Below, one piece after another: positions 7,328 to 61,746 of a stretch of 64,000 nucleotides of DNA. The stretch covers positions 5,749,299 to 5,813,298 of the forward strand of contig NZ_CP051167.1 of NCBI RefSeq assembly GCF_012295525.1, given 5' to 3'. Below the pieces are notes generated by a model. The model was not told where the DNA came from. It ran no database searches and worked only from the letters and a program-made list of their open reading frames with translations. The DNA is from Oxynema aestuarii AP17 (GTDB lineage: Bacteria > Cyanobacteriota > Cyanobacteriia > Cyanobacteriales > Laspinemataceae). A program made the position numbers and the translations under genes. How positions within the stretch are numbered: position 1 is the first letter of the stretch; each line of letters starts with the position of its first letter.

Positions 7328-9211
7328 TTAACGCGATGGATTCGGAGGGTTCGGATTGCGTCCGGCGAGCTGGCGCAATTGCTCGGTTTCGGCGAAAATA
7401 CGGTCGGGATCGGTTTCGATCGCCCGTTTGACGTAGTTGAGCTTGATTTCTTCGAGTAAGTCGGACACCAACGCCTGCAGTTCGGCGAGGGTATTTTCGG
7501 TCTGCAATTCCACCCGCAAGGCTTCGCCAAAATTCTCGACCAACTGCTCGATCAATTCGTCGGCGATCGGATCCGGGGGCAGGTCGGCGATCGCGTGATA
7601 CGCACTGTCTGGCCCTTCTGCCAGCAATTTCGACACCCTCACCGACACTTGTTTGGCAATCTGCTCGGACCACCCCGCTAACCCCATTCCCTGCAATCGC
7701 CGATAAAAATCCGTGCTTTTAATACTCGTCTCCAGCACGTGATAGATCAACTGCTCCAGATCCGGTTGCACTTTGGGCAAGACTTTACACACTCCCAATT
7801 GCAACAGTCGCCGCGAAATTTCCTGCACTTCATTCGTATCGTTAATGTCGATATATTCCTGTTCGTTTGGCTGGAGCAGCGATTTGGTCAATTCTCCACT
7901 TTCGACGCTACTTTTCATTTGATTGATAATCTGCACGACCACCACTTGGGTCAGTTCTTCGGCGAAACTGGCGACGACCCCCAAGCGCAATTGCGCGCGC
8001 AACCATTCAATATCCACTAAACCGGATTCGTCGAGGCGAATGACTACGGGAACGACGCGCAACCACCGCCAAAAAGGAATTAACAATAACAAGTCGTACC
8101 AGCGCCAAAATACGGCACTTTCCAGGGTAACGTTGGGATGACGCCGGGTAATCAGCCAACTGCGAAATAAAATATCGATAAAAAATAAGGCGACGAAGAA
8201 AAAGTCAATCAACCAAAAGCGATCGATATAATCACTATTCACCCCGATATGGCGGTAATAGTTACTCTGCATTAAAAACCGAATCTTGCCATTGAAAAAC
8301 TTTAGTTCTTCCTGCCAGCCGTGCTCCCGGAAATTCTCCAGACTCCAAAACTCCTCAAAGGCTCCCGTGGAAGACTTATTCGCCCAAAACACTTCGGGGG
8401 CTAAAAAGTCCAGAACCCAAATAATCGGCGCGGGACCCGAGGGAGCCTCTTCGGGTTTGCGCGAGTAAATATGACGGCGAATTTGATTTTTAATCTCTTC
8501 GAGGGTGCCACTTTTCTCGGCTTGGGCGAAATAATTTTCTCGAATCATGTTGCGACTTTCTTCGCGCAATTCTTCGAGTAGGATCGGCACTTCGGGAGAC
8601 TCCATGCCGTACAGTTGCAATTCGGCTTGCAGTTCGGAGACGAGGCGTAAATATTGTTGGGTATCCCGATAAGGTTCGATCCCTTTGACCGGATCGTAAA
8701 ATAATTTAGGTTCGTAAAAGTCGATTAAAAAGCGGATTTCGCTGTTGAAAAATCTGAGGCTTTCTTGCCAGCCATTTTGACGCAAGTAACGCACGCTCCA
8801 GAGGCTTTGGAAGGCGTCGATCGCGTCGTCGGTGCCGAACTGCTCGCTCATGCGGGTTTTCACTTCTTCGAGGGACCCGTAGCTGTCGGTGACGCGAAAT
8901 AAATCTTCTCCTAACAGGCGGGTACTCTGCTGGCGCAATTGTTCGAGCAGGGGAGGGACTTCGGGGGAATCCAAGCCTTGCTCTTGTAACAGGGTTTCGA
9001 GGCGATCGACGTTTTTGAGATATTTCTCGCGATTGGTGACGTTGAATTTTTGGAAGAACAGATCGGCGCGCAAGTAATAGTCGCGTCCGGGGATATAGCT
9101 GAGGTCGAACAGGACGAGACCCAAGTTTAAAACGGCCACGATCGCGATCGTTTTGTCGATCCAGTGGAGCCAGGAGGGAAAGCGGCGATCGGGACGTTGT
9201 GGGGATGGCAT
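7328..9211 (-). CDS. Hypothetical membrane protein with an internal tandem duplication of a ~150-aa soluble module and a C-proximal arginine-periodic (S4-like) transmembrane helix
   Basis: 627-aa ORF with an N-terminal TM. Two repeats share the motifs (EQGLDSPEVP...LRQNGWQESLRFFNSEIRFL) and (YGMESPEVP...REHGWQEELKFFNGKIRFL). These are followed by FWLIDFFFVALFFIDILF and FWRWLRVVPVVIRL helices. Confidence 0.6.
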   Translation of the reverse strand: MPSPQRPDRRFPSWLHWIDKTIAIVAVLNLGLVLFDLSYIPGRDYYLRADLFFQKFNVTNREKYLKNVDRLETLLQEQGLDSPEVPPLLEQLRQQSTRLLGEDLFRVTDSYGSLEEVKTRMSEQFGTDDAIDAFQSLWSVRYLRQNGWQESLRFFNSEIRFLIDFYEPKLFYDPVKGIEPYRDTQQYLRLVSELQAELQLYGMESPEVPILLEELREESRNMIRENYFAQAEKSGTLEEIKNQIRRHIYSRKPEEAPSGPAPIIWVLDFLAPEVFWANKSSTGAFEEFWSLENFREHGWQEELKFFNGKIRFLMQSNYYRHIGVNSDYIDRFWLIDFFFVALFFIDILFRSWLITRRHPNVTLESAVFWRWYDLLLLIPFWRWLRVVPVVIRLDESGLVDIEWLRAQLRLGVVASFAEELTQVVVVQIINQMKSSVESGELTKSLLQPNEQEYIDINDTNEVQEISRRLLQLGVCKVLPKVQPDLEQLIYHVLETSIKSTDFYRRLQGMGLAGWSEQIAKQVSVRVSKLLAEGPDSAYHAIADLPPDPIADELIEQLVENFGEALRVELQTENTLAELQALVSDLLEEIKLNYVKRAIETDPDRIFAETEQLRQLAGRNPNPPNPSR

Positions 9212-42579: not shown

Positions 42580-42987
42580 ATGGCTGGTTTCGGAGATGTG
42601 GTTCAAAAAGCCTTCTATCTCGGGGTGGGTTTGGCGTCCTATGCGGGAGAAAAAGCAGGAACCAAACTGACCGAGTTACAAAAACAAGCCCAGAAGTTAG
42701 CGGACGAACTGGTAGAACGCGGGGAGATGAGTACGGACGAAGCCCGCCGTTTTGTCGAAGATATGGTCAATCAGGGTCGCCAGTCGGTGAACGAGTCGGC
42801 GGGAGACGAGACACCGAAAGAACCGCGTCGCATCGAAATTCTCGAAGATGAAGAAGGCGAGACCGGGGAGACGGAAGCGCAAGCGCCGACACAAGCCGCG
42901 CCGGGTAAAGGTTCTGACAATGTAGACCAACTGCGCGATCGCGTGCGATCGCTTCAAGACGAACTGCGCCGCCTGCAAAACGAGTAG
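42580..42987 (+). CDS. Phasin-like/coiled-coil protein with an acidic tail
   Basis: 135-aa ORF. The N-terminus MAGFGDVVQKAFYLGVGLASYAGEK is followed by a helical region and an acidic low-complexity stretch. Confidence 0.4.
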   Translation: MAGFGDVVQKAFYLGVGLASYAGEKAGTKLTELQKQAQKLADELVERGEMSTDEARRFVEDMVNQGRQSVNESAGDETPKEPRRIEILEDEEGETGETEAQAPTQAAPGKGSDNVDQLRDRVRSLQDELRRLQNE

Positions 42988-43003: not shown

Positions 43004-43504
43004 GTGACATGGCAAAAGCTTATGGAAAATTGGCCGACTGATTTATTTAAACTCCTCGAAAGCGCCACCGAAGATGTCGAAGGCTTTTTTCAGGAATTAA
43101 GCGAAGAGGTCAACGAATTTTTTGACGATTTAGCGAAGATTCCCGAACAAATCACCCGGGATTTTAACGACGGCTTGGATTTAGTAGAAGAACTCGAAGA
43201 GGGATTTTTTCTCGAAATCGATCGCTTTTTCTTGGAAGTCTTCGATCCGACCCTCGCCGAGGAATTAAACCGATTCGATTTAGAAGACCTATTCTACGAT
43301 CTAGATCGGTCCGTCGATGAAAACTCTCCAGACCCCCCCCAGCCGTTCGTGACTTACGTCCGACCCACCCAAGGGCGACATCCGGCTTGTGTAGGATGTT
43401 ACCACTATCACGGTCACGTTTACGGCGGCAATTTGCTCGTATGCGGGATGCATCCTTACGGTTGGGACGGAGAAAGCTGTCCCGACTGGGAATCGGAAGT
43501 TTAG
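43004..43504 (+). CDS. Hypothetical acidic protein with a C-terminal Cys/His-rich motif
   Basis: 166-aa ORF with a GTG start; an alternative ATG lies at 43022. The C-terminus is HPACVGCYHYHGHVYGGNLLVCGMHPYGWDGESCPDWE, a putative metal-binding motif. Confidence 0.45.
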   Translation: MTWQKLMENWPTDLFKLLESATEDVEGFFQELSEEVNEFFDDLAKIPEQITRDFNDGLDLVEELEEGFFLEIDRFFLEVFDPTLAEELNRFDLEDLFYDLDRSVDENSPDPPQPFVTYVRPTQGRHPACVGCYHYHGHVYGGNLLVCGMHPYGWDGESCPDWESEV

Positions 43505-43585: not shown

Positions 43586-46459
43586 ATGAATAAAGCTACA
43601 ACAACACGACGGCGAACCTCTACGGGTCTGCAGAGAACGGTTTTGTTCGCAACGATCGCCTGTTCCCTGTTCTCTTCGGGTACGATCGAACGACAGGCGA
43701 TCGCTCAAATCGTACCCGATGCGACCTTACCCGATCGCTCCACGGTCACCGTCGAAGGAAATACGATACAGATTACCGGAGGAACGGCGCGATCGCGCAA
43801 TTTATTCCACAGTTTTGAAAGCTTCTCGATCCCTACCGGAACAACCGCCACCTTCGACAACCCCCGGACGATCGAAAATATCTTTTCGCGGGTGACCGGA
43901 AGCGACCTGAGTAACATCGACGGTCTCCTCCAAGCCAACGGCGGCGCCAACCTCTTCTTAATCAACCCCAACGGCATCGTTTTCGGGCCGAATGCCTCCT
44001 TAAATGTAGGCGGTTCCTTTGTTGCAACCAGTGCGGACGCGGTCTTATTCGACGACGGCAGCCGTTTTAGCGCGATCGCCCCTCAAACCGACACCCTGCT
44101 CACCGTTAGCGTTCCCGTCGGCTTGCAATTGGGCGACAATCCCGGGGCGATCGCCATCAACGGAATCGGACTCGGGCGCAGTTTTGCCACCCCAGATTTC
44201 GACGGAAGCGAAACGGCGACCCAGAACGTCGAAACCGCGCGCCAAGAAATCGCCTTTCAACTGAGTATTCTCGCCCGCGAGGACGGGTTGGGGGTTCGAC
44301 CCGATCGCACCTTAGCCCTCGTTGGCGGTCCGATTGTCTTAGACGGGGCCTTATTAAAAGCCCCCCAAGGTCGAATCGAGTTGTGGTCCGGTCGCAACGG
44401 ACAACTGAGAACGACGGGAGAACGAGGAGAATTCGGGTTTGAAGAAACCTCCCCCTTCTCCTCATTTCAAGATATCTCCATCACCAACGAATCCGGCTTA
44501 TTCACCGGGTTGGGCGGCGATGGCGGCGTCCGCGTACACGGGCGCAATCTCACCATTACCGGAGGATCGGAAATTCGTTCCGACAGTCTCGGCGAAGAAG
44601 ATGGGGGCGAAATCGCCCTAGAAGCGTCGGAAGTCGTCGAAATTAGCGGGATTTCCAGAGATGGCACCTCTCGCACGATCGTCGGATCCGGCGCCTTCGG
44701 TAATGGCGATGCGGGTAGCGTCGAAGTGCGTGGGACCCAATTAAACGTGTTGGACGGCGGCTGGATTACCGTGGGAACCGTCAGCGACGGCGAAGCGGGA
44801 ACGATCGCGATCGCCACCTCAGAATCGGTAGAATTAAGCGGCATTCCCATAAATGGCCAATTCGCCAGCATCCTCGACGCTTCCACCCTCGGAGTCGGTA
44901 ACGCCAGCAATGTCGATATTACCACCCGGCGCCTGACGATGCGCGACGGCGCCCAAGTGCGCGTTCGAACCTTCGGCCCGGGACGGGGAGGCAACTTGAC
45001 CATCCGCGCCTCAGAATCGGTGCAGTTGAGCGGAACCGACCCCCAAACCGGAACATCGACCCAAATCGAGGCGACCGCTTACAGCAGTGGCGAGGCGGGG
45101 GAAATCGAGATCGTCACCCCCCTACTCAGTTTGAGCGACGGCGCCCAAATCGAAGCCGCCAGCAACGGGACGGGAAAGGGCGGCAGACTGGAGATCGAGG
45201 GGGCCGAGTTAGTAGATATTGCCGGAGTCAGTGCGGATGGGGAACGCAGTTTGCTGACGACGAAAGGGTTCGGGTCGGGAGACGCGGGGGACGTGACCGT
45301 GAGAACCCGCCGTTTGATCGTGCGCGATGGCGGCGAAATCGGGACGAGTACCTCGGTGGACGGGGTCGGCGGGTTGATGTTGTTGGAGGCGTCGGAGGCG
45401 ATCGAGTTTAGAGGGACCTCGCCGGATGGCAGTTTGCCGACCTTAATCACCGCCGATACCGACGGGGCGGGGAATGCGGGGAACGTGACGATCGCCACTC
45501 CCCGCTTGAGGGTGGGCGACGGGGCGATCGTGCTCTTGGGAACCTCTGGGGAAGGGAATGCGGGCCGTTTGCGCTTAGAGGCGACGGAAAGCGTCGAAAT
45601 CGTCGGGAATGCTCAAATTGACGCGCGCACCCTCGGATCGGGCAATGGCGGGGGCATCGCGATCGCCACGGACCGCCTCCAGGTGGCCGACGGATCCCGG
45701 ATCGGCGTCAACGGGGAAGGGACGGGAACCCCAGGCAATATTGAGATTGCGGCGTCGGACGTGCAACTCGATCGCGGCGCCTTGCAAGCGTCATCGGCGA
45801 TCGGAAAAGGGGGTAATATTGACCTGCGATCGCCCGATATTCTCTTACGCAATCGCAGCGAAATTGTCGCCGCAGGCAGTCAAACCGGGAATATTACGCA
45901 GGAAGGCAATATCACGATCGCCGCCGAAACCCTGGTATTGCTCGAAGCCAGCCAGATCGTCACCAGCGCCACGGACCCTCAAGGAGGCAGCAATATCGCC
46001 ATTAGCGCCATCCGAGGAGACGAGTTATTAGTTCTACTCTCTCCCGACAGTATTATCAATGCCCGAGGGCAGTTAAATATTGACGGCGATATCGATATCG
46101 AACCCGCCAATCTGCCCGAAGTCGAGGTCGCCGACCCGGATGCGGCGATCGCGCGCAGCCCCTGCAATCCCGAACAACTCGCCGAAAGTAGCTTTGCCAT
46201 TCGCGGACGCGGCGGCTTACCCGTCAATCCCGGTCAACCCCTCAGCCGCGACGGGGTGTCGGTGGAGTTGGTCGAACCCATCTGGGAGACCCGGGAGACG
46301 CCCTCGGCGGCCAACTCATCCCGCGATCGCCCTTCGGATCCTTTAATCGAGGCGCGCGGCTTCGATCGCACTGCCGACGGCCAAATCTTGCTGACGGCGG
46401 CGCGATCGTCCGGTGCCAGTTCGCCGCCTCACATCATGGACTTATGTTCTCCCGAGTAA
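43586..46459 (+). CDS. Two-partner-secretion (TpsA) exoprotein with an N-terminal filamentous-haemagglutinin TPS domain and a long beta-helical repeat region
   Basis: 957-aa ORF with a signal peptide. The TPS domain motifs are NLFHSFESFSIP, GLLQANGGANLFLINPNGIVFG and VGGSFVATSAD. Downstream there are many degenerate ~20-aa beta-helix repeats (..GDAGxVxV..L.v.dGa.I..). Confidence 0.85.
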   Translation: MNKATTTRRRTSTGLQRTVLFATIACSLFSSGTIERQAIAQIVPDATLPDRSTVTVEGNTIQITGGTARSRNLFHSFESFSIPTGTTATFDNPRTIENIFSRVTGSDLSNIDGLLQANGGANLFLINPNGIVFGPNASLNVGGSFVATSADAVLFDDGSRFSAIAPQTDTLLTVSVPVGLQLGDNPGAIAINGIGLGRSFATPDFDGSETATQNVETARQEIAFQLSILAREDGLGVRPDRTLALVGGPIVLDGALLKAPQGRIELWSGRNGQLRTTGERGEFGFEETSPFSSFQDISITNESGLFTGLGGDGGVRVHGRNLTITGGSEIRSDSLGEEDGGEIALEASEVVEISGISRDGTSRTIVGSGAFGNGDAGSVEVRGTQLNVLDGGWITVGTVSDGEAGTIAIATSESVELSGIPINGQFASILDASTLGVGNASNVDITTRRLTMRDGAQVRVRTFGPGRGGNLTIRASESVQLSGTDPQTGTSTQIEATAYSSGEAGEIEIVTPLLSLSDGAQIEAASNGTGKGGRLEIEGAELVDIAGVSADGERSLLTTKGFGSGDAGDVTVRTRRLIVRDGGEIGTSTSVDGVGGLMLLEASEAIEFRGTSPDGSLPTLITADTDGAGNAGNVTIATPRLRVGDGAIVLLGTSGEGNAGRLRLEATESVEIVGNAQIDARTLGSGNGGGIAIATDRLQVADGSRIGVNGEGTGTPGNIEIAASDVQLDRGALQASSAIGKGGNIDLRSPDILLRNRSEIVAAGSQTGNITQEGNITIAAETLVLLEASQIVTSATDPQGGSNIAISAIRGDELLVLLSPDSIINARGQLNIDGDIDIEPANLPEVEVADPDAAIARSPCNPEQLAESSFAIRGRGGLPVNPGQPLSRDGVSVELVEPIWETRETPSAANSSRDRPSDPLIEARGFDRTADGQILLTAARSSGASSPPHIMDLCSPE

Positions 46460-46488: not shown

Positions 46489-47427
46489 CTATCCCTGGGG
46501 ACGCGACCCGATCGCGGCGATCGCCACTCCAAATAATAAAACGATCGCTCCAATTAAAACCGAGATCCCGGGAACTTCATTAAAAACGAGAAAGCCCAAA
46601 AAACTCGATGCAACGGGTTCAAATAAAACCGCCAACGCCACCAAAGTCGGCGACGTCCAACGAACGGCCCAATTTAAGCTCGTATGACCGATCATTTGAG
46701 GAATCAAAGCCATCAGAAGAATATAAAAATAAACTTCCGTGGGATAGCCGAAATATGAAGTTTGAAAAACAAACGGCATCGGGAGTAAAACCAGCGCCGC
46801 ACAAGTACAAACGATCGCGCTGTACGGACCAATTCCCATCCCCCGACTTTGCACCGACTTCGCCAGCAATAAATAGATACTAATCGTCCAAGATCCTAAC
46901 AACGCGAGCAGATCTCCCAAAATTGGGTTACTTCCGCCGTACAACCCGCCACTATCTCCCAATCCGATCGCCATTCCCCCCATTAAGGCGATCGCGATTC
47001 CGGTGACCGTCATTTTCGTGGGTTTGTCTTTGTAAATCCACCAAGACAGCAAGGAAACCCAAATCGGATTCATGGTGACGATCGTCGTCGAAGCGGCGAT
47101 CGAAGTATAAGAAAGCGACGCGATCCACCCGGCGAAATGGAGCGCTAAAAACACGCCAGCGAGGGCAGCTTGGGCGATCGTCACTTTTTCGAGACGCGCG
47201 GGTTTGAAGTTGCGCCACGCGGGAGCCAACAAAAGTGAGGCAATTGTGAGGCGAGTGGCGGCCATCACCAAACTAAAGCCAATCCCTCGGGTTCCCGCAG
47301 CTTCCAGGGTCAAGCGGATAAAAATGGCGGCAGTGGAGACCGCTAAAACCCCAACCGCGATCGTCAGATTGAGCTGCCACGCCAGGGGATGTTTTACAGG
47401 AGAGTCCAGAGTATGTTTGACAGTCAT
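46489..47427 (-). CDS. EamA/DMT-family transporter
   Basis: 312-aa ORF with 10 TMs and two EamA-like halves. Confidence 0.8.
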   Translation of the reverse strand: MTVKHTLDSPVKHPLAWQLNLTIAVGVLAVSTAAIFIRLTLEAAGTRGIGFSLVMAATRLTIASLLLAPAWRNFKPARLEKVTIAQAALAGVFLALHFAGWIASLSYTSIAASTTIVTMNPIWVSLLSWWIYKDKPTKMTVTGIAIALMGGMAIGLGDSGGLYGGSNPILGDLLALLGSWTISIYLLLAKSVQSRGMGIGPYSAIVCTCAALVLLPMPFVFQTSYFGYPTEVYFYILLMALIPQMIGHTSLNWAVRWTSPTLVALAVLFEPVASSFLGFLVFNEVPGISVLIGAIVLLFGVAIAAIGSRPQG

Positions 47428-50956: not shown

Positions 50957-51601
50957 ATGGCCATTTATCTCGATTCGGCGATCGTTGCCGACGCCAAAGC
51001 TGCCCAAAAACTCGGCTGGGTCAAAGGAATCACCACCAACCCGACCTTACTGGCGCAAAGCGACGATCCGCCAGAAATGACCTTGAAAAACTTACTCCCG
51101 TTCGCCGACGGTCCGCTTTACTATCAATTGCTAGCTGGCGACGTTCCTGGAATGGTCGCCGAAGGACGCCGAGCTTACGAGATTATCGGCGATCGCACCG
51201 TCCTCAAAATTCCCGCCACGCCGACCGGATTTGAAGCCGTCGCCATTCTTTCAAAAGAGATGACCTGTTCGGTGACCGGGATTTACGGACCGATCCAAGC
51301 GGCGATCGCCCGGGAAGCCGGAGCCAAAATCGCGATCGCCTACGTCAACCGCGCCACGAGGCTTTTGGGCGACGGGATCGCCCTCGTGCGCGAGATGGCC
51401 GCGATCCTCGAAGACAGTGACGTCGAAATCTTGGCCGCCAGTATCAAGTCTCCCGAAGAAGCTGCCGCCGCCTTACAAGCAGGCGCCGACCACTTGACCC
51501 TACCGTTGCCGATGTTAGCGGCGATCGCCCAGCACGAGTTTTCCGATAAAACCGTCGAAGACTTCGCCAAAACGGGCCGGGGATTACCCCTTAAAACGTA
51601 A
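50957..51601 (+). CDS. Transaldolase-family protein (short TalC/fructose-6-phosphate aldolase type)
   Basis: 214-aa ORF. MAIYLDSAIVADAKAA...GITTNPTLL... matches the N-terminus of short transaldolases. The catalytic Lys context is VLKIPAT. Confidence 0.85.
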   Translation: MAIYLDSAIVADAKAAQKLGWVKGITTNPTLLAQSDDPPEMTLKNLLPFADGPLYYQLLAGDVPGMVAEGRRAYEIIGDRTVLKIPATPTGFEAVAILSKEMTCSVTGIYGPIQAAIAREAGAKIAIAYVNRATRLLGDGIALVREMAAILEDSDVEILAASIKSPEEAAAALQAGADHLTLPLPMLAAIAQHEFSDKTVEDFAKTGRGLPLKT

Positions 51602-52631
51602 AAATTTGCTTGACCCGGGTCGCTTCATTCTCCTGTTGCGCCCGGGCGAGTTCCCGGTCTAAGGCGGCTAAATTTTCCTCGATCGCCCCGACCAGACGGG
51701 CGATCGCCGACCCATTGGTCGGCAGACGGCGCCCGAGTTCGACATCGGTGCGATAGTGGGTTTCGAGGGCGTTGCGCCCCTGTCGAATCGCCGTTTGATA
51801 CTCGTTCGACTCGGCGATCGCCCGATCCAACTCGCCGCGCACCCGATCGTACTCCCGGCGTTGGGAGTCGAGTTCGTCTAAGAGCTGTTGTAAGCTGTCG
51901 CCGAGGCGATCGCGCTGTCGGGCGTAGTCCGCGATCGCCGCTTTCGCTGTTTCTTCAGTTCGCAATTGCAGGCGATCGCGCCGTCCGCGCAATAATTCGA
52001 TTTCTTCACCGAGTTGGGACTGCTGACGCCGTAACTGCTCGATTTGACCGTCGAGATCCGCTTTTTCGCGCTCCAGTTCGCTCAATTGCGCCTGTTGCGG
52101 TGCCAAGACGGCGCGATCGCGGGCGATCGACGCGCGCAAGCCATCGAGATCGGTGCGTTCCAACTCCCCACGCAGTCGGTCGAATTGCTCTGCTTCGTGT
52201 TGCAGTTGCTCTAATTCGGCGATCGCGTCGCGCATGTCGCCATCGATCGCCGAAAATTCGCCCGTTTTTGTCAGCAATTCGCTGTGTTGCGCGCGCAACT
52301 GTTGTAATTGGCGGGCGCGATCGCCGATTTTGGTTTGGAGGGCGTCTAATAACGAGAGGCGATCGAGGGTCGCGCCCGTGCGATCGAGCCATTGCAGTTG
52401 GGCGTCTAAGGCGCGAGTGAGGGCGATCGCCCACGCTTCCAAGGTTTCCGGTTCGGTCGCGTCCAACTGTTGCAAAACCTCGGGTGGATAGAGTTGTGCC
52501 CAAACATCGAGCAGAATTTCGAGCCATTGCAACGGGAGGGCGATCGTCTCGAAGGTCAACAAGGGGCGTTCGTCCTCAGAGGCGAGGTGTTGGAGACGGG
52601 CGATCGATTGGGCGAGGAGATCGAGGGACAT
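51591..52631 (-). CDS. Hypothetical coiled-coil protein (Arg/Glu/Leu/Gln-rich), downstream partner of the Hsp70-like gene
   Basis: The internal ATG start (MSLDLLAQS...) gives a ~346-aa product. It is almost entirely predicted helical and coiled coil, with no enzymatic motifs. Confidence 0.5.
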   Translation of the reverse strand: MSLDLLAQSIARLQHLASEDERPLLTFETIALPLQWLEILLDVWAQLYPPEVLQQLDATEPETLEAWAIALTRALDAQLQWLDRTGATLDRLSLLDALQTKIGDRARQLQQLRAQHSELLTKTGEFSAIDGDMRDAIAELEQLQHEAEQFDRLRGELERTDLDGLRASIARDRAVLAPQQAQLSELEREKADLDGQIEQLRRQQSQLGEEIELLRGRRDRLQLRTEETAKAAIADYARQRDRLGDSLQQLLDELDSQRREYDRVRGELDRAIAESNEYQTAIRQGRNALETHYRTDVELGRRLPTNGSAIARLVGAIEENLAALDRELARAQQENEATRVKQIFTF

Positions 52632-52711
52632 GGGTAAGGGGGAGTAAAGAGCCAATGTGAAGTACCCGACGCTCATTGCTACGCAATAGAGCGCGGGCTT
52701 CTCTCTTCACC

Positions 52712-52733
52712 CTAAAATCTAAAATCTAAAATT
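52712..52733. repeat. Short heptanucleotide repeat (CTAAAAT x3)
   Basis: cctaaaatctaaaatctaaaat, between the Hsp70-like and coiled-coil genes. Confidence 0.7.
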
Positions 52734-52737
52734 TCCA

Positions 52738-54336
52738 TTATTCAATTAACACGAAACCGGGAAACATTTTCGCTAAAACATTGCCTAACTCATATTCCAC
52801 TCGTTTTTCCCCGCGAACTTCTTCAATGGTTAAATAAGCAATTTGAGAGCGATCCACGCGCATTCCCACCCGCCATTTATCCTCGGGAGAATAACTCGGT
52901 AACTTCACCATCTCCGGTAAGGATTCTTCGACCAAGACGCCTTTTCCTTGGGGGTCTACCCAGAGGGTGAGGGTCAAGGGTGCATCTTGTTGAAAGGTCA
53001 CTAAAGGGGGAATATCGGCAAATTGGGGTTGAGATAACTCTTCCAAGCGGGTGCCACCTTTGATAATTTCGATCGCGCGGCGTTGGCGTTCGGCGTTGGC
53101 GTCGATGGTATCGACCACGATCCCGAGATTGTGCAGATATTTTTCGCTGGGTTGGACGCGATCGTTGGCGATCAAACAGGCGCCGTAGGAGATCGCATAA
53201 GCGCTGTGGGTGAGGTTAAAGGTTGCGTCGAGACGGGGATCGTCTGTAGCGAATTGTAAGGCTGAGGCGATCGCCCGTCGGACGAGGAAAAACTGAGAAA
53301 AACCGCCGACGAGGAAGACGCGATCGATCGTCTGTTGTCGTTCGGCGATCCAGGTTCGGACTCGTTCGATGACTGCGGTAATTCCGGCGGCGATCGGTGC
53401 GAATGCCTCGCACACTTGTGCGAAATTGAGGGAATACCCCCCGGCAAACACGTAAATCTGGCGATCGCCGTAAATTTCCGGCTCGCGCACGGCATTTGTG
53501 AGGTATCGCGTCACGCGGGCGTGAGAGCCGATTTTGACCGTTTCAAATTCCCGTAACAGGCGCAGGAATTCCGGGTCGTTTTCGTCGAGAGTCGAGTCGT
53601 GTTTTGCCTTGTAAGCTGCTTGCACGCAACGGCGATCGAAAGCTACCCCGGCGGATTCGAGACCGCGATCGCCCTGTCCGTCAAAATAGAGGACATCGAC
53701 TTTTTGTTCCCCGTAAATTCGGCATAAACTCACATCAAACGTACCGCCACCCATATCGCACACGAGGAGATTTCCCGAAAAACTCTCATCTCCCGCATCT
53801 TTTGCCCGTCGTTGCATGTCCCAAGTATAGTAAGCGGCGGCGGCGACGGGTTCGCTGACCAATTGAATGAGGGGCAAATCGAGAGCGGCGATCGCCTGTT
53901 TTAACAATTCTCGTCCGCGATTGTAAAGATCGCGCTGCCAAATTTCGGGAACCGAGACCACCAGACCGGAGATTTCCCCTTGTTGTTTGCAAAAACTGTA
54001 AGGATTTTCCTCAGAAACGAGCAGTTCGCGCAAGTAATCCGTAGTGACGCTGGCGGGGGTGCGATCGTGGCGAATGTACTCCGGCAATCGATCGGCGGGA
54101 ATGGGCAAGCGCATTTTAAAATTGCCGTAAGTTTCCACATCCCCGTGATTGGCGGCGAGAGTCCGCGCGGCGGTGCCAATTTCGACAAATTCCTCGTCGT
54201 AGCCGATAAACGAGGGAATATAGCGGCGACCGTCAGGACCGCCATATTGAAAGGCTTCTACTTCGGCGGAGGAGGTGAAATAAGAAATAATCGAGTTCGT
54301 CGTCCCGAAATCGAGGCCGATTTTGTACCCGGACAT
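52738..54336 (-). CDS. Hsp70-family actin-like ATPase, apparently lacking the canonical substrate-binding domain
   Basis: 532-aa ORF. The NBD motifs are IGLDFGTTNSIISY, LLVCDMGGGTFDVSL and RVFLVGGFSQFFLV. The C-terminal ~150 aa do not resemble the DnaK SBD. Confidence 0.8.
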   Translation of the reverse strand: MSGYKIGLDFGTTNSIISYFTSSAEVEAFQYGGPDGRRYIPSFIGYDEEFVEIGTAARTLAANHGDVETYGNFKMRLPIPADRLPEYIRHDRTPASVTTDYLRELLVSEENPYSFCKQQGEISGLVVSVPEIWQRDLYNRGRELLKQAIAALDLPLIQLVSEPVAAAAYYTWDMQRRAKDAGDESFSGNLLVCDMGGGTFDVSLCRIYGEQKVDVLYFDGQGDRGLESAGVAFDRRCVQAAYKAKHDSTLDENDPEFLRLLREFETVKIGSHARVTRYLTNAVREPEIYGDRQIYVFAGGYSLNFAQVCEAFAPIAAGITAVIERVRTWIAERQQTIDRVFLVGGFSQFFLVRRAIASALQFATDDPRLDATFNLTHSAYAISYGACLIANDRVQPSEKYLHNLGIVVDTIDANAERQRRAIEIIKGGTRLEELSQPQFADIPPLVTFQQDAPLTLTLWVDPQGKGVLVEESLPEMVKLPSYSPEDKWRVGMRVDRSQIAYLTIEEVRGEKRVEYELGNVLAKMFPGFVLIE

Positions 54337-55673: not shown

Positions 55674-55989
55674 CGTTTGACTCCTTGGGTTTAGACAGAT
55701 CGATCGCGATTGTAAAGGATAAGAGCCCTCGGGGCGATCGCGCAGAATCTCTCGAATGTAGGGATTACCGAGGATCTGCGTAAACTCGGATGGGTATTTT
55801 TGGGGAGGTTCGTCCGGCGCACTCAAGCTAAAGTGGGAGAGAGTGCAGATCGCATCAATGCTCGTCGGTAAGATCACCCGTAAGGGCGATCGCCCGATTT
55901 TGACGGCTCTACCCATCGGTACGTTGCTGAGGTGTTTGACGCCGAGACAAGCGCTGCTTGCATCCCCTGTTTCTCCATCCTTAAAACCC

Positions 55990-61746
<5,757 letters not shown>

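Follow-up and report, generated by a model that had tools for sequence, protein, structure and literature searches.

A TpsA-type protein of Oxynema aestuarii encoded apart from any TpsB gene belongs to a large cyanobacterial family with a cysteine-bracketed C-terminal tail

The chromosome of the cyanobacterium Oxynema aestuarii AP17 encodes, within the 64,000-nucleotide stretch analyzed here (henceforth the window; NZ_CP051167.1, positions 5,749,299 to 5,813,298), a 957-residue TpsA-type protein of two-partner secretion (TPS) systems, and the window holds no gene for a TpsB transporter beside it. We propose, with a probability of roughly 0.7, that this protein (gene at 43586-46459, + strand) is a functional type Vb passenger of a large and almost exclusively cyanobacterial family, that it is exported via a TpsB encoded elsewhere, and that, by analogy, it may be anchored by its C-terminal tail. 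The lack of an adjacent TpsB gene is the usual state of this family and not an anomaly. In itself the protein is an ordinary member of this very large family, and it is already annotated in RefSeq as a TPS-domain protein. A modest degree of novelty lies only in a point that concerns the family rather than this window in particular, namely a tail bracketed by cysteines that is found family-wide, together with the frequent company of genes for CHAT, DUF928 and CHASE2 proteins.

The gene is an intact open reading frame (ORF) with an ATG start, and an exact-sequence look-up identifies its product with QIZ73137.1/WP_168571283.1, which carries the database title 'two-partner secretion domain-containing protein [Oxynema aestuarii]'; the genome of this organism has been described (PMC7595944; 4,801 proteins in 6.37 Mb), and WP_168571283.1 is encoded on its 6.36-Mb chromosome. 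The SerA protein of the window likewise matches that of O. aestuarii with 100% identity. Examined by eye, residues 1-40 (43586-43705, +) resemble a Sec-type signal peptide, with RRR as its basic n-region, VLFATIACSLF as its hydrophobic core and then AIA, with a putative boundary before the following Q. Conservation in the family alignment begins at AQIVPD, straight after this segment, which has predicted local distance difference test (pLDDT) values below 50 in the AlphaFold2 model. The TPS secretion domain proper (residues 40-274; 43703-44407, +) is matched by Pfam PF05860 with E=1.8e-60 (205 bits, cutoff 33.5) and by TIGR01901 (adhes_NPXG) with E=2.3e-28 (97.9 bits, cutoff 29.1), and contains NLFHSF (residues 72-77) and NPNGI (residues 127-131), both of which are invariant or nearly so in family alignments. 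The initial annotation, made from the DNA alone, had recognized a TPS domain by these two motifs, and the N-terminal domain does score as a haemagglutination-activity domain. Pfam and NCBIfam searches with the 957-residue protein recovered no domain besides TPS, even at E up to 1. We also noticed a helical insert within the TPS domain (residues 211-230, nt 44216-44275, TARQEIAFQLSILARE..., modeled as helix H211-230), which is lineage-specific, with a comparable segment in only four (P0001, P0044, P0089 and P0100) of 16 aligned sequences.

An AlphaFold2 model built from a 66-sequence alignment (mean pLDDT 81, predicted template modeling score 0.79) consists of an uninterrupted beta-helix from residue 42 to about residue 835. 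The shaft of this helix is formed by six divergent repeats of about 64 residues (residues 336-735; 44591-45790, +) with the consensus GxGxAGxxxIxTxxLxVxDGAxV...GxGxGGxLxVxASESVExxG, which show a strand pattern with a 64-residue period at pLDDT above 90; at the DNA level no tandem repeat was found across these six units. Conserved columns and confidently predicted strands continue to about residue 832 in the helix's C-terminal end (residues 736-835; 45791-46090, +), where GGNI..L, EGNI.I and GGSNI mark conserved turns. Foldseek comparison of the model with the PDB returned TpsA proteins as all of the top 23 matches, led by EtpA (2e-11), HxuA (3.5e-8) and HMW1 (3e-7) and including HpmA and FHA, the latter in 13th place; by sequence too, EtpA (2.5e-10) and HxuA (1.4e-8) come nearest among solved chains. 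Thus the beta-helical repeats previously suspected from the sequence are borne out by the model and its best structural matches, and we regard it as strongly supported that the protein is a Sec-exported beta-helix of the TpsA fold. The Oxynema protein shares with HMW1 and HxuA of Haemophilus influenzae and EtpA of enterotoxigenic Escherichia coli the Sec signal peptide, the N-terminal TPS domain and the long right-handed beta-helix. However, similarity in sequence covers only some 100 residues within the TPS domain and extends to neither the repeats nor the tail, and whereas the genes of that group lie in operons with TpsB and a glycosyltransferase, the Oxynema gene is solitary.

The gene is under purifying selection and is no relic, because the ratio of nonsynonymous to synonymous substitution rates (dN/dS) is 0.25 in comparison with an orthologue from a Logan contig (L003) that has 95% protein identity, equal length, no indels and the same flanking genes. 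The constraint is strongest in the TPS domain (0.09), intermediate in the repeats (0.21) and, apart from the signal peptide, weakest in the tail (0.53). Orthologues at 90% identity or more occur in four further assemblies, and the cluster mates at this level include Oxynema sp. CENA135, a metagenome-assembled genome and a Joint Genome Institute (JGI) genome. The raised G+C content of the gene was considered as a sign of horizontal transfer and was not counted as such, because it arises mainly from the Gly/Ala/Ser/Thr-rich repeats, and the G+C content at third codon positions (GC3) is 0.67, compared with 0.65 in infB.

The databases hold more than 7,000 relatives of this protein; among 120 listed, all named matches are cyanobacterial, and members from Microcoleus, Kamptonema, Nostoc and others are 35-46% identical to it. 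Gene neighborhoods were compared at 83 loci, of which 80 were listed from species-representative genomes and three were obtained by exact look-up; complete 10-kb flanks are available for 40 of them. Within 10 kb, TpsB is encoded at 14 of the 83 loci and at 11 of the 40 full-flank loci (27%), so that 69 and 29 loci, respectively, have none. A CHAT-TPR protein is encoded within this distance at 44 of the 83 and 27 of the 40 loci (68%), most often, where listed, directly downstream of the tpsA gene, and a DUF928 protein at 22 and 14 loci, respectively. None of TpsB, CHAT or DUF928 is present at 12 of the full-flank loci (30%). The initial annotation had singled out the orphan state of the Oxynema gene as worthy of note, a view that does not survive these counts; the orphan condition is the family norm and is shared by a paralogue in a close relative and by TpsA genes on Nostoc plasmids. 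These cyanobacterial clusters, in which tpsA, a CHAT gene and at times tpsB are often joined by genes for DUF928 and a CHASE2 cyclase, encode TpsA proteins with the same architecture, repeats and tail as the Oxynema protein, and in RefSeq their products bear no more than the labels 'filamentous hemagglutinin N-terminal domain-containing protein', 'CHAT domain-containing protein' and 'ShlB/FhaC/HecB family' protein. The Oxynema copy differs in having none of the accompanying genes in 64 kb, a condition that it shares with the 12 bare full-flank loci.

Where TpsB is linked, its association with the family is intimate. All 14 TpsB genes directly adjoin a tail-bearing TpsA of the family, in the order tpsA-tpsB-CHAT or tpsB-tpsA-CHAT, and the gap between the stop-to-stop ORF boundaries of TpsA and TpsB measures 13-144 bp at 12 loci and 754 bp at one. 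At a further locus, from Dapis sp. BLCC M229 (L040, 9872-14707), a tail-bearing TpsA and TpsB form a single stop-free ORF of about 1,610 codons, for which a genuine fusion, read-through or an error in sequencing may account. The linked members of the family thus clearly pair with bona fide TpsB transporters. In four loci two or three TpsA genes stand beside a single TpsB gene. A comparable excess of TpsA is seen on plasmids: tblastn searches found TpsA on 39 plasmids of Nostoc and 16 of Acaryochloris and TpsB on 15 and 7, respectively, and TpsA genes are about twice as numerous as TpsB genes on cyanobacterial plasmids. In Nostoc punctiforme, pNPUN02 carries an adjacent tpsA-tpsB pair (matches H34 and H160), while on pNPUN01 a TpsA gene directly precedes a CHAT gene and has no TpsB within 15 kb. 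Likewise, the TpsA of the PCC 7120 alpha plasmid is accompanied by genes for CHAT, CHASE2, DUF928, DUF1822 and a sigma factor, with no TpsB, and the paralogue P0101 from a close Oxynema-like genome lies in a CHASE2-cyclase/DUF928/TpsA/CHAT cluster with no TpsB within 10 kb. A homologue search for Oxynema paralogues with the TPS domain alone yielded only short fragments, none from Oxynema. With E. coli EtpB as query, tblastn gave no cyanobacterial genus among the ten commonest and no cyanobacterial record among the 60 matches listed, and a cyanobacterial TpsB query did recover cyanobacterial TpsB genes, which are common in this phylum.

Several features of these neighborhoods deserve mention in their own right. 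A recurrent cyanobacterial arrangement comprises genes for a CHASE2-guanylate cyclase, DUF928, TpsA, optionally TpsB, and a CHAT-TPR protease, at times with DUF1822 and a sigma-70 factor as well (e.g. L094, 7019-16696; L085, 5368-23352). On a plasmid of Acaryochloris marina MBIC10699 (H55; NZ_AP026078.1, 13739-14353) a TPS match falls inside a gene annotated as CHAT, so that a TPS secretion domain of their own may be present in some CHAT proteases. A CHAT-TPR/TpsB/TpsA operon is also found on a plasmid of Caballeronia sp. M1242 (L093, 2682-12900), where it is inserted between tssJ and tssA inside a type VI secretion cluster.

The initial annotation had reported no TpsB gene within 10 kb of the Oxynema gene, and our searches extend this result to the whole window. 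In 29 ORFs selected from the window's ORF lists, Pfam detected neither a ShlB nor a POTRA domain. A profile built from seven annotated proteobacterial TpsBs was run unfiltered on all stop-to-stop segments of at least 100 residues from 85 cyanobacterial loci and the window; it retrieved 14 TpsBs from cyanobacteria, with E values between 1e-59 and 1e-79 as against 0.14 for the match ranked next, and found none in the window. A second profile, to which the cyanobacterial TpsBs had been added, was run on all six-frame segments of the window of at least 40 residues and again matched no TpsB, its best score being E=0.076 on a 93-residue segment. A 627-residue ORF (7328-9211, -) that was considered as a candidate barrel was rejected, having no Pfam match and being predicted as helical or membrane-associated. 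An assembly artefact as the cause of the missing TpsB was likewise rejected, the window being a contiguous piece of chromosome whose synteny is kept in the 95%-identical relative. Six-frame scans of the window with CHAT and DUF928 profiles gave no match.

An EamA transporter gene (46489-47427, -) is convergent with the tpsA gene and lies 30 bp downstream. Upstream, two ORFs are co-directional with tpsA, the nearer ending 81 bp ahead of it. That nearer ORF (43004-43504, +) encodes a very acidic protein of 166 residues with a C-terminal Cys/His cluster (CVGCYHYHGHVYGGNLLVCGMHPYGWDGESCPDW) and no Pfam match, and the farther one (42580-42987, +) a coiled-coil protein of 135 residues. Both were rejected as family partners, as they occur next to tpsA only in the 95%-identical relative and are absent from the other family loci searched. 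The EamA transporter had been correctly named in the initial annotation, but its description of the 135-residue protein as phasin-like does not hold beyond the coiled coil, the matches being sub-threshold. Beyond these nearest neighbors lie housekeeping and signaling genes.

The family-specific C-terminal tail (residues 836-957; 46091-46456, +) is predicted to be mostly disordered and is bracketed by Cys860 (46163-46165, +) and Cys954 (46445-46447, +), the latter followed by three residues. Neither cysteine varies in alignments of 81 and of 66 sequences, and the only other cysteine of the Oxynema protein is C26 in the signal peptide, its body being Cys-free. Between them the tail follows a regular order: after the first Cys come about 14 residues, a TG(R/K)GG motif, a low-complexity linker rich in S/T/P/N/Q, a beta-hairpin, about 15 residues and the second Cys. 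The motif reads F870-AI-R-G-R875-G-G-L-P-VN-P882 in Oxynema (46193-46231, +; family consensus F.[IV]TG[RK]GG[LI]P..P); conservation of F870, G874, G876, G877, P879 and P882 is complete or reaches at least 90%, and 232 of 245 sequences have R or K at the basic position of TG(R/K)GG. The hairpin LIEARGFDRTADGQILLTA (residues 920-938; 46343-46399, +) corresponds to the family consensus [IV]EAxGW.....G.[IV].LTA, with E922, A923, G932 and L936 conserved, and the Oxynema protein possesses all motif residues of the tail except for W926, which is replaced by F. The spacing of the two cysteines has a median of 98 (interquartile range 97-100) in spite of the variable sequence of the linker, and the last Cys lies at a median of four residues from the end of the protein.

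This tail is present in 115 of 120 homologues, 98 of which combine exactly two cysteines in the tail with none in a body of about 1,000 residues. A tail profile matches the Oxynema protein with E=5.4e-24 and, in a collection of 1.84 billion cluster representatives, gives 6,839 matches with an E cutoff of 1e-3 and 4,281 with one of 1e-10. Each of the best 150 matches listed has the tail at its very C-terminus, and a TPS domain is present in 71 of the 82 listed tail proteins of at least 700 residues, the other 11 appearing to be truncated at the N-terminus; in the one proteobacterial CHAT-linked TpsA tested, that of Caballeronia, the profile found no match. In both full-length and fragment AlphaFold2 models the tail is disordered (pLDDT about 35-55) save for the hairpin, with strands at 925-928 and 934-937 and a pLDDT of 74 in the fragment model. 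Because of this predicted disorder the tail is, as far as the models indicate, no globular effector domain. The earlier statement that the protein ends without a recognizable toxin domain is accordingly right, but it passed over a conserved, family-specific segment (residues ~851-957) with two invariant cysteines.

A function for the tail is suggested by analogy. HMW1 and HxuA possess a C-terminal anchor closed by a disulfide and lodged in the periplasm or the TpsB pore (PMC5422565). The invariant Cys pair of the Oxynema protein resembles this arrangement and, with HxuA and EtpA being its closest solved relatives, leads us to suggest that the tail may act as a periplasmic disulfide stopper or anchor. 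The resemblance has its bounds, as the loop between the cysteines in Oxynema would span about 98 residues and include a low-complexity linker. As for the transporter, the small fraction of linked loci, the two or three TpsA genes beside single TpsB genes and the excess of TpsA on plasmids, along with the established ability of some TpsBs to serve more than one TpsA (PMC5422565), make it likely that the Oxynema protein is exported via an unlinked and shared TpsB. Secretion by a distant TpsB was among the options raised in the initial annotation and is the one that the family statistics favor.

Combining these elements, the following scheme can be envisaged. The Sec system would export the protein to the periplasm, as its signal peptide suggests, and the TPS domain would dock on the POTRA domains of a TpsB encoded elsewhere in the O. 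aestuarii chromosome, a transporter that is probably shared with paralogous TpsA proteins. The chain would then thread outward from N- to C-terminus and fold into a rigid, Cys-free beta-helix of about 800 residues, a fold predicted with high confidence, and the resulting fiber might act as an adhesin or as a surface-layer-like fiber of the cyanobacterial filament. If the analogy with HMW1 and HxuA holds, the last 100 or so residues would stay behind in the periplasm, where the Cys pair would close the ~98-residue loop; being unable to pass the TpsB pore, this loop would keep the fiber tethered. All of the seven CHAT proteins inspected have N-termini resembling signal peptides, and it is conceivable, if speculative, that in relatives of the Oxynema protein a periplasmic, caspase-like CHAT protease encoded directly downstream cuts at TG(R/K)GG and releases the fiber. 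The product would be a cell-surface fiber, be it an adhesin or a sheath or surface-layer-like component of the filament. We are doubtful that the more elaborate proposal holds in its entirety, namely that the tail is a new module for the regulated release of type Vb passengers, that its Cys loop stalls and tethers the fiber, that an exported CHAT protease, possibly under CHASE2 control, cuts after the basic residue, and that a few TpsBs serve many dispersed TpsAs.

Several observations weigh against the proposal that the Oxynema protein is a tail-anchored passenger of an unlinked TpsB. The scan for TpsB in O. aestuarii covers the 64-kb window, and we infer the transporter elsewhere in the genome; the usual partners of the family, CHAT, DUF928 and CHASE2, are all absent from the window; and no promoter-like consensus was found upstream of tpsA. 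The low confidence of AlphaFold2 in the tail means that no predicted fold supports a plug, the tail has no sequence similarity to the anchors of HMW1 or HxuA, and its loop is far longer than theirs. A disulfide, a tail located in the periplasm and its cleavage by CHAT are matters of analogy or speculation. Finally, a search of the literature on CHAT, DUF928, CHASE2 and TPS in cyanobacteria found nothing on this TpsA family or its neighborhood.

A different role for the tail would be that of a removable periplasmic prodomain, as in FhaB of Bordetella, which would hold back or regulate release before its own degradation, the mature fiber then being shed to the sheath or the medium. FhaB is likewise a beta-helical TpsA adhesin whose C-terminal region is held in the periplasm and processed by proteases, and a tail that is largely disordered, that carries a conserved basic residue within a Gly-rich motif, that is under weaker constraint than any other part of the protein save the signal peptide, and that is encoded next to exported CHAT proteases in two thirds of the family would fit such a role. 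However, the FhaB prodomain has about 1,200 residues, as against only about 100 in this tail, and lacks a Cys bracket; the fhaB and fhaC genes are linked (FhaC having FhaS as a second substrate), and the Oxynema window contains no CHAT gene that we could find. The invariance and fixed spacing of the Cys pair point to a structural lock rather than to a mere spacer. We consider the prodomain an unlikely explanation taken by itself; it is also compatible with anchoring, as a later step, and hence does not exclude it.

Departing further from the proposed route, the protein, possibly along with the orphans that make up most of its family, could leave the cell without any TpsB, through an Omp85 protein of the BamA/TamA type, a type I system or vesicles, with the TPS domain serving only as a folding nucleus. 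The failure to find TpsB in 64 kb and at most family loci fits such a route, and a family member on the alpha plasmid of PCC 7120 has genes for an ABC transporter and an HlyD adaptor directly upstream. Yet every TpsB within reach adjoins a member of the family, TpsB genes are common in cyanobacteria, and no other part of the protein is constrained as strongly as the TPS domain, whose TpsB-docking motifs are invariant. We know of no TpsA that is secreted without a TpsB. Export independent of TpsB is accordingly quite improbable, and it is similarly improbable that O. aestuarii is devoid of any TpsB.

It could also be supposed that the gene is a decaying orphan that has lost its partner genes and is no longer expressed or secreted, given its solitary position without TpsB, CHAT, DUF928 or CHASE2 in the window and the missing promoter-like consensus. 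But a frame of 957 codons that is intact and has an orthologue of the same length, the low dN/dS overall and in the TPS domain, the retention of every family-invariant residue including both cysteines, the maintenance of the gene in several Oxynema-like genomes and the existence of 12 equally solitary full-flank loci make decay very improbable. A contact-dependent inhibition (CDI) protein of the CdiA type, or a carrier of a polymorphic toxin too divergent to be recognized, is excluded: although the architecture with its TPS domain and filamentous beta-helical passenger is that of a TpsA such as CdiA, and polymorphic toxin systems exist in cyanobacteria, as indicated in PMC3482391, the protein has, in agreement with the initial annotation, no VENN or other pretoxin motif and no Pfam domain beyond TPS, it ends in a conserved, non-polymorphic and disordered tail common to thousands of proteins, and it is followed not by a small immunity-like ORF or a linked CdiB gene but by the convergent EamA transporter gene.

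The window contains several other genes of note. An 889-residue protein (30666-33335, +) has the full architecture of the eukaryote-type Major Vault Protein (MVP), with Vault repeats and the Vault_2, Vault_3, Vault_4 and MVP_shoulder domains (E down to 3e-65); the GC3 of its gene is 0.46, compared with 0.51-0.67 in the other genes measured, and it may represent a bacterial MVP homologue gained by horizontal transfer. Just downstream, at 33540-37482 (+), a phosphoketolase (XFP, 810 residues) and then an acetate kinase (406 residues) are encoded, which constitute a phosphoketolase bypass gene pair. A hybrid histidine kinase of 1,967 residues (55843-61746, +) combines an N-terminal ethylene-receptor-like ETR1_N domain with many PAS domains, GAF, HisKA/HATPase, two receivers and Hpt. 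Finally, a divergent HSP70-like protein (532 residues; PF00012, E=3e-15) is encoded beside a coiled-coil protein of 361 residues at 51591-54336 (-).

The unlinked TpsA of O. aestuarii matters little in itself, since this is the usual arrangement in its cyanobacterial family. The wider family is of more interest: it has thousands of members in filamentous cyanobacteria, is uncharacterized as far as our searches show, and ends in a Cys-bracketed tail, which in the Oxynema protein escaped detection by Pfam and NCBIfam. If this tail is indeed a device for anchoring and releasing the fiber, it would represent a new variation on type V secretion. It would then also help to explain how filamentous cyanobacteria build and remodel their surfaces, in adhesion, in the formation of mats and perhaps in the sheaths used in gliding.

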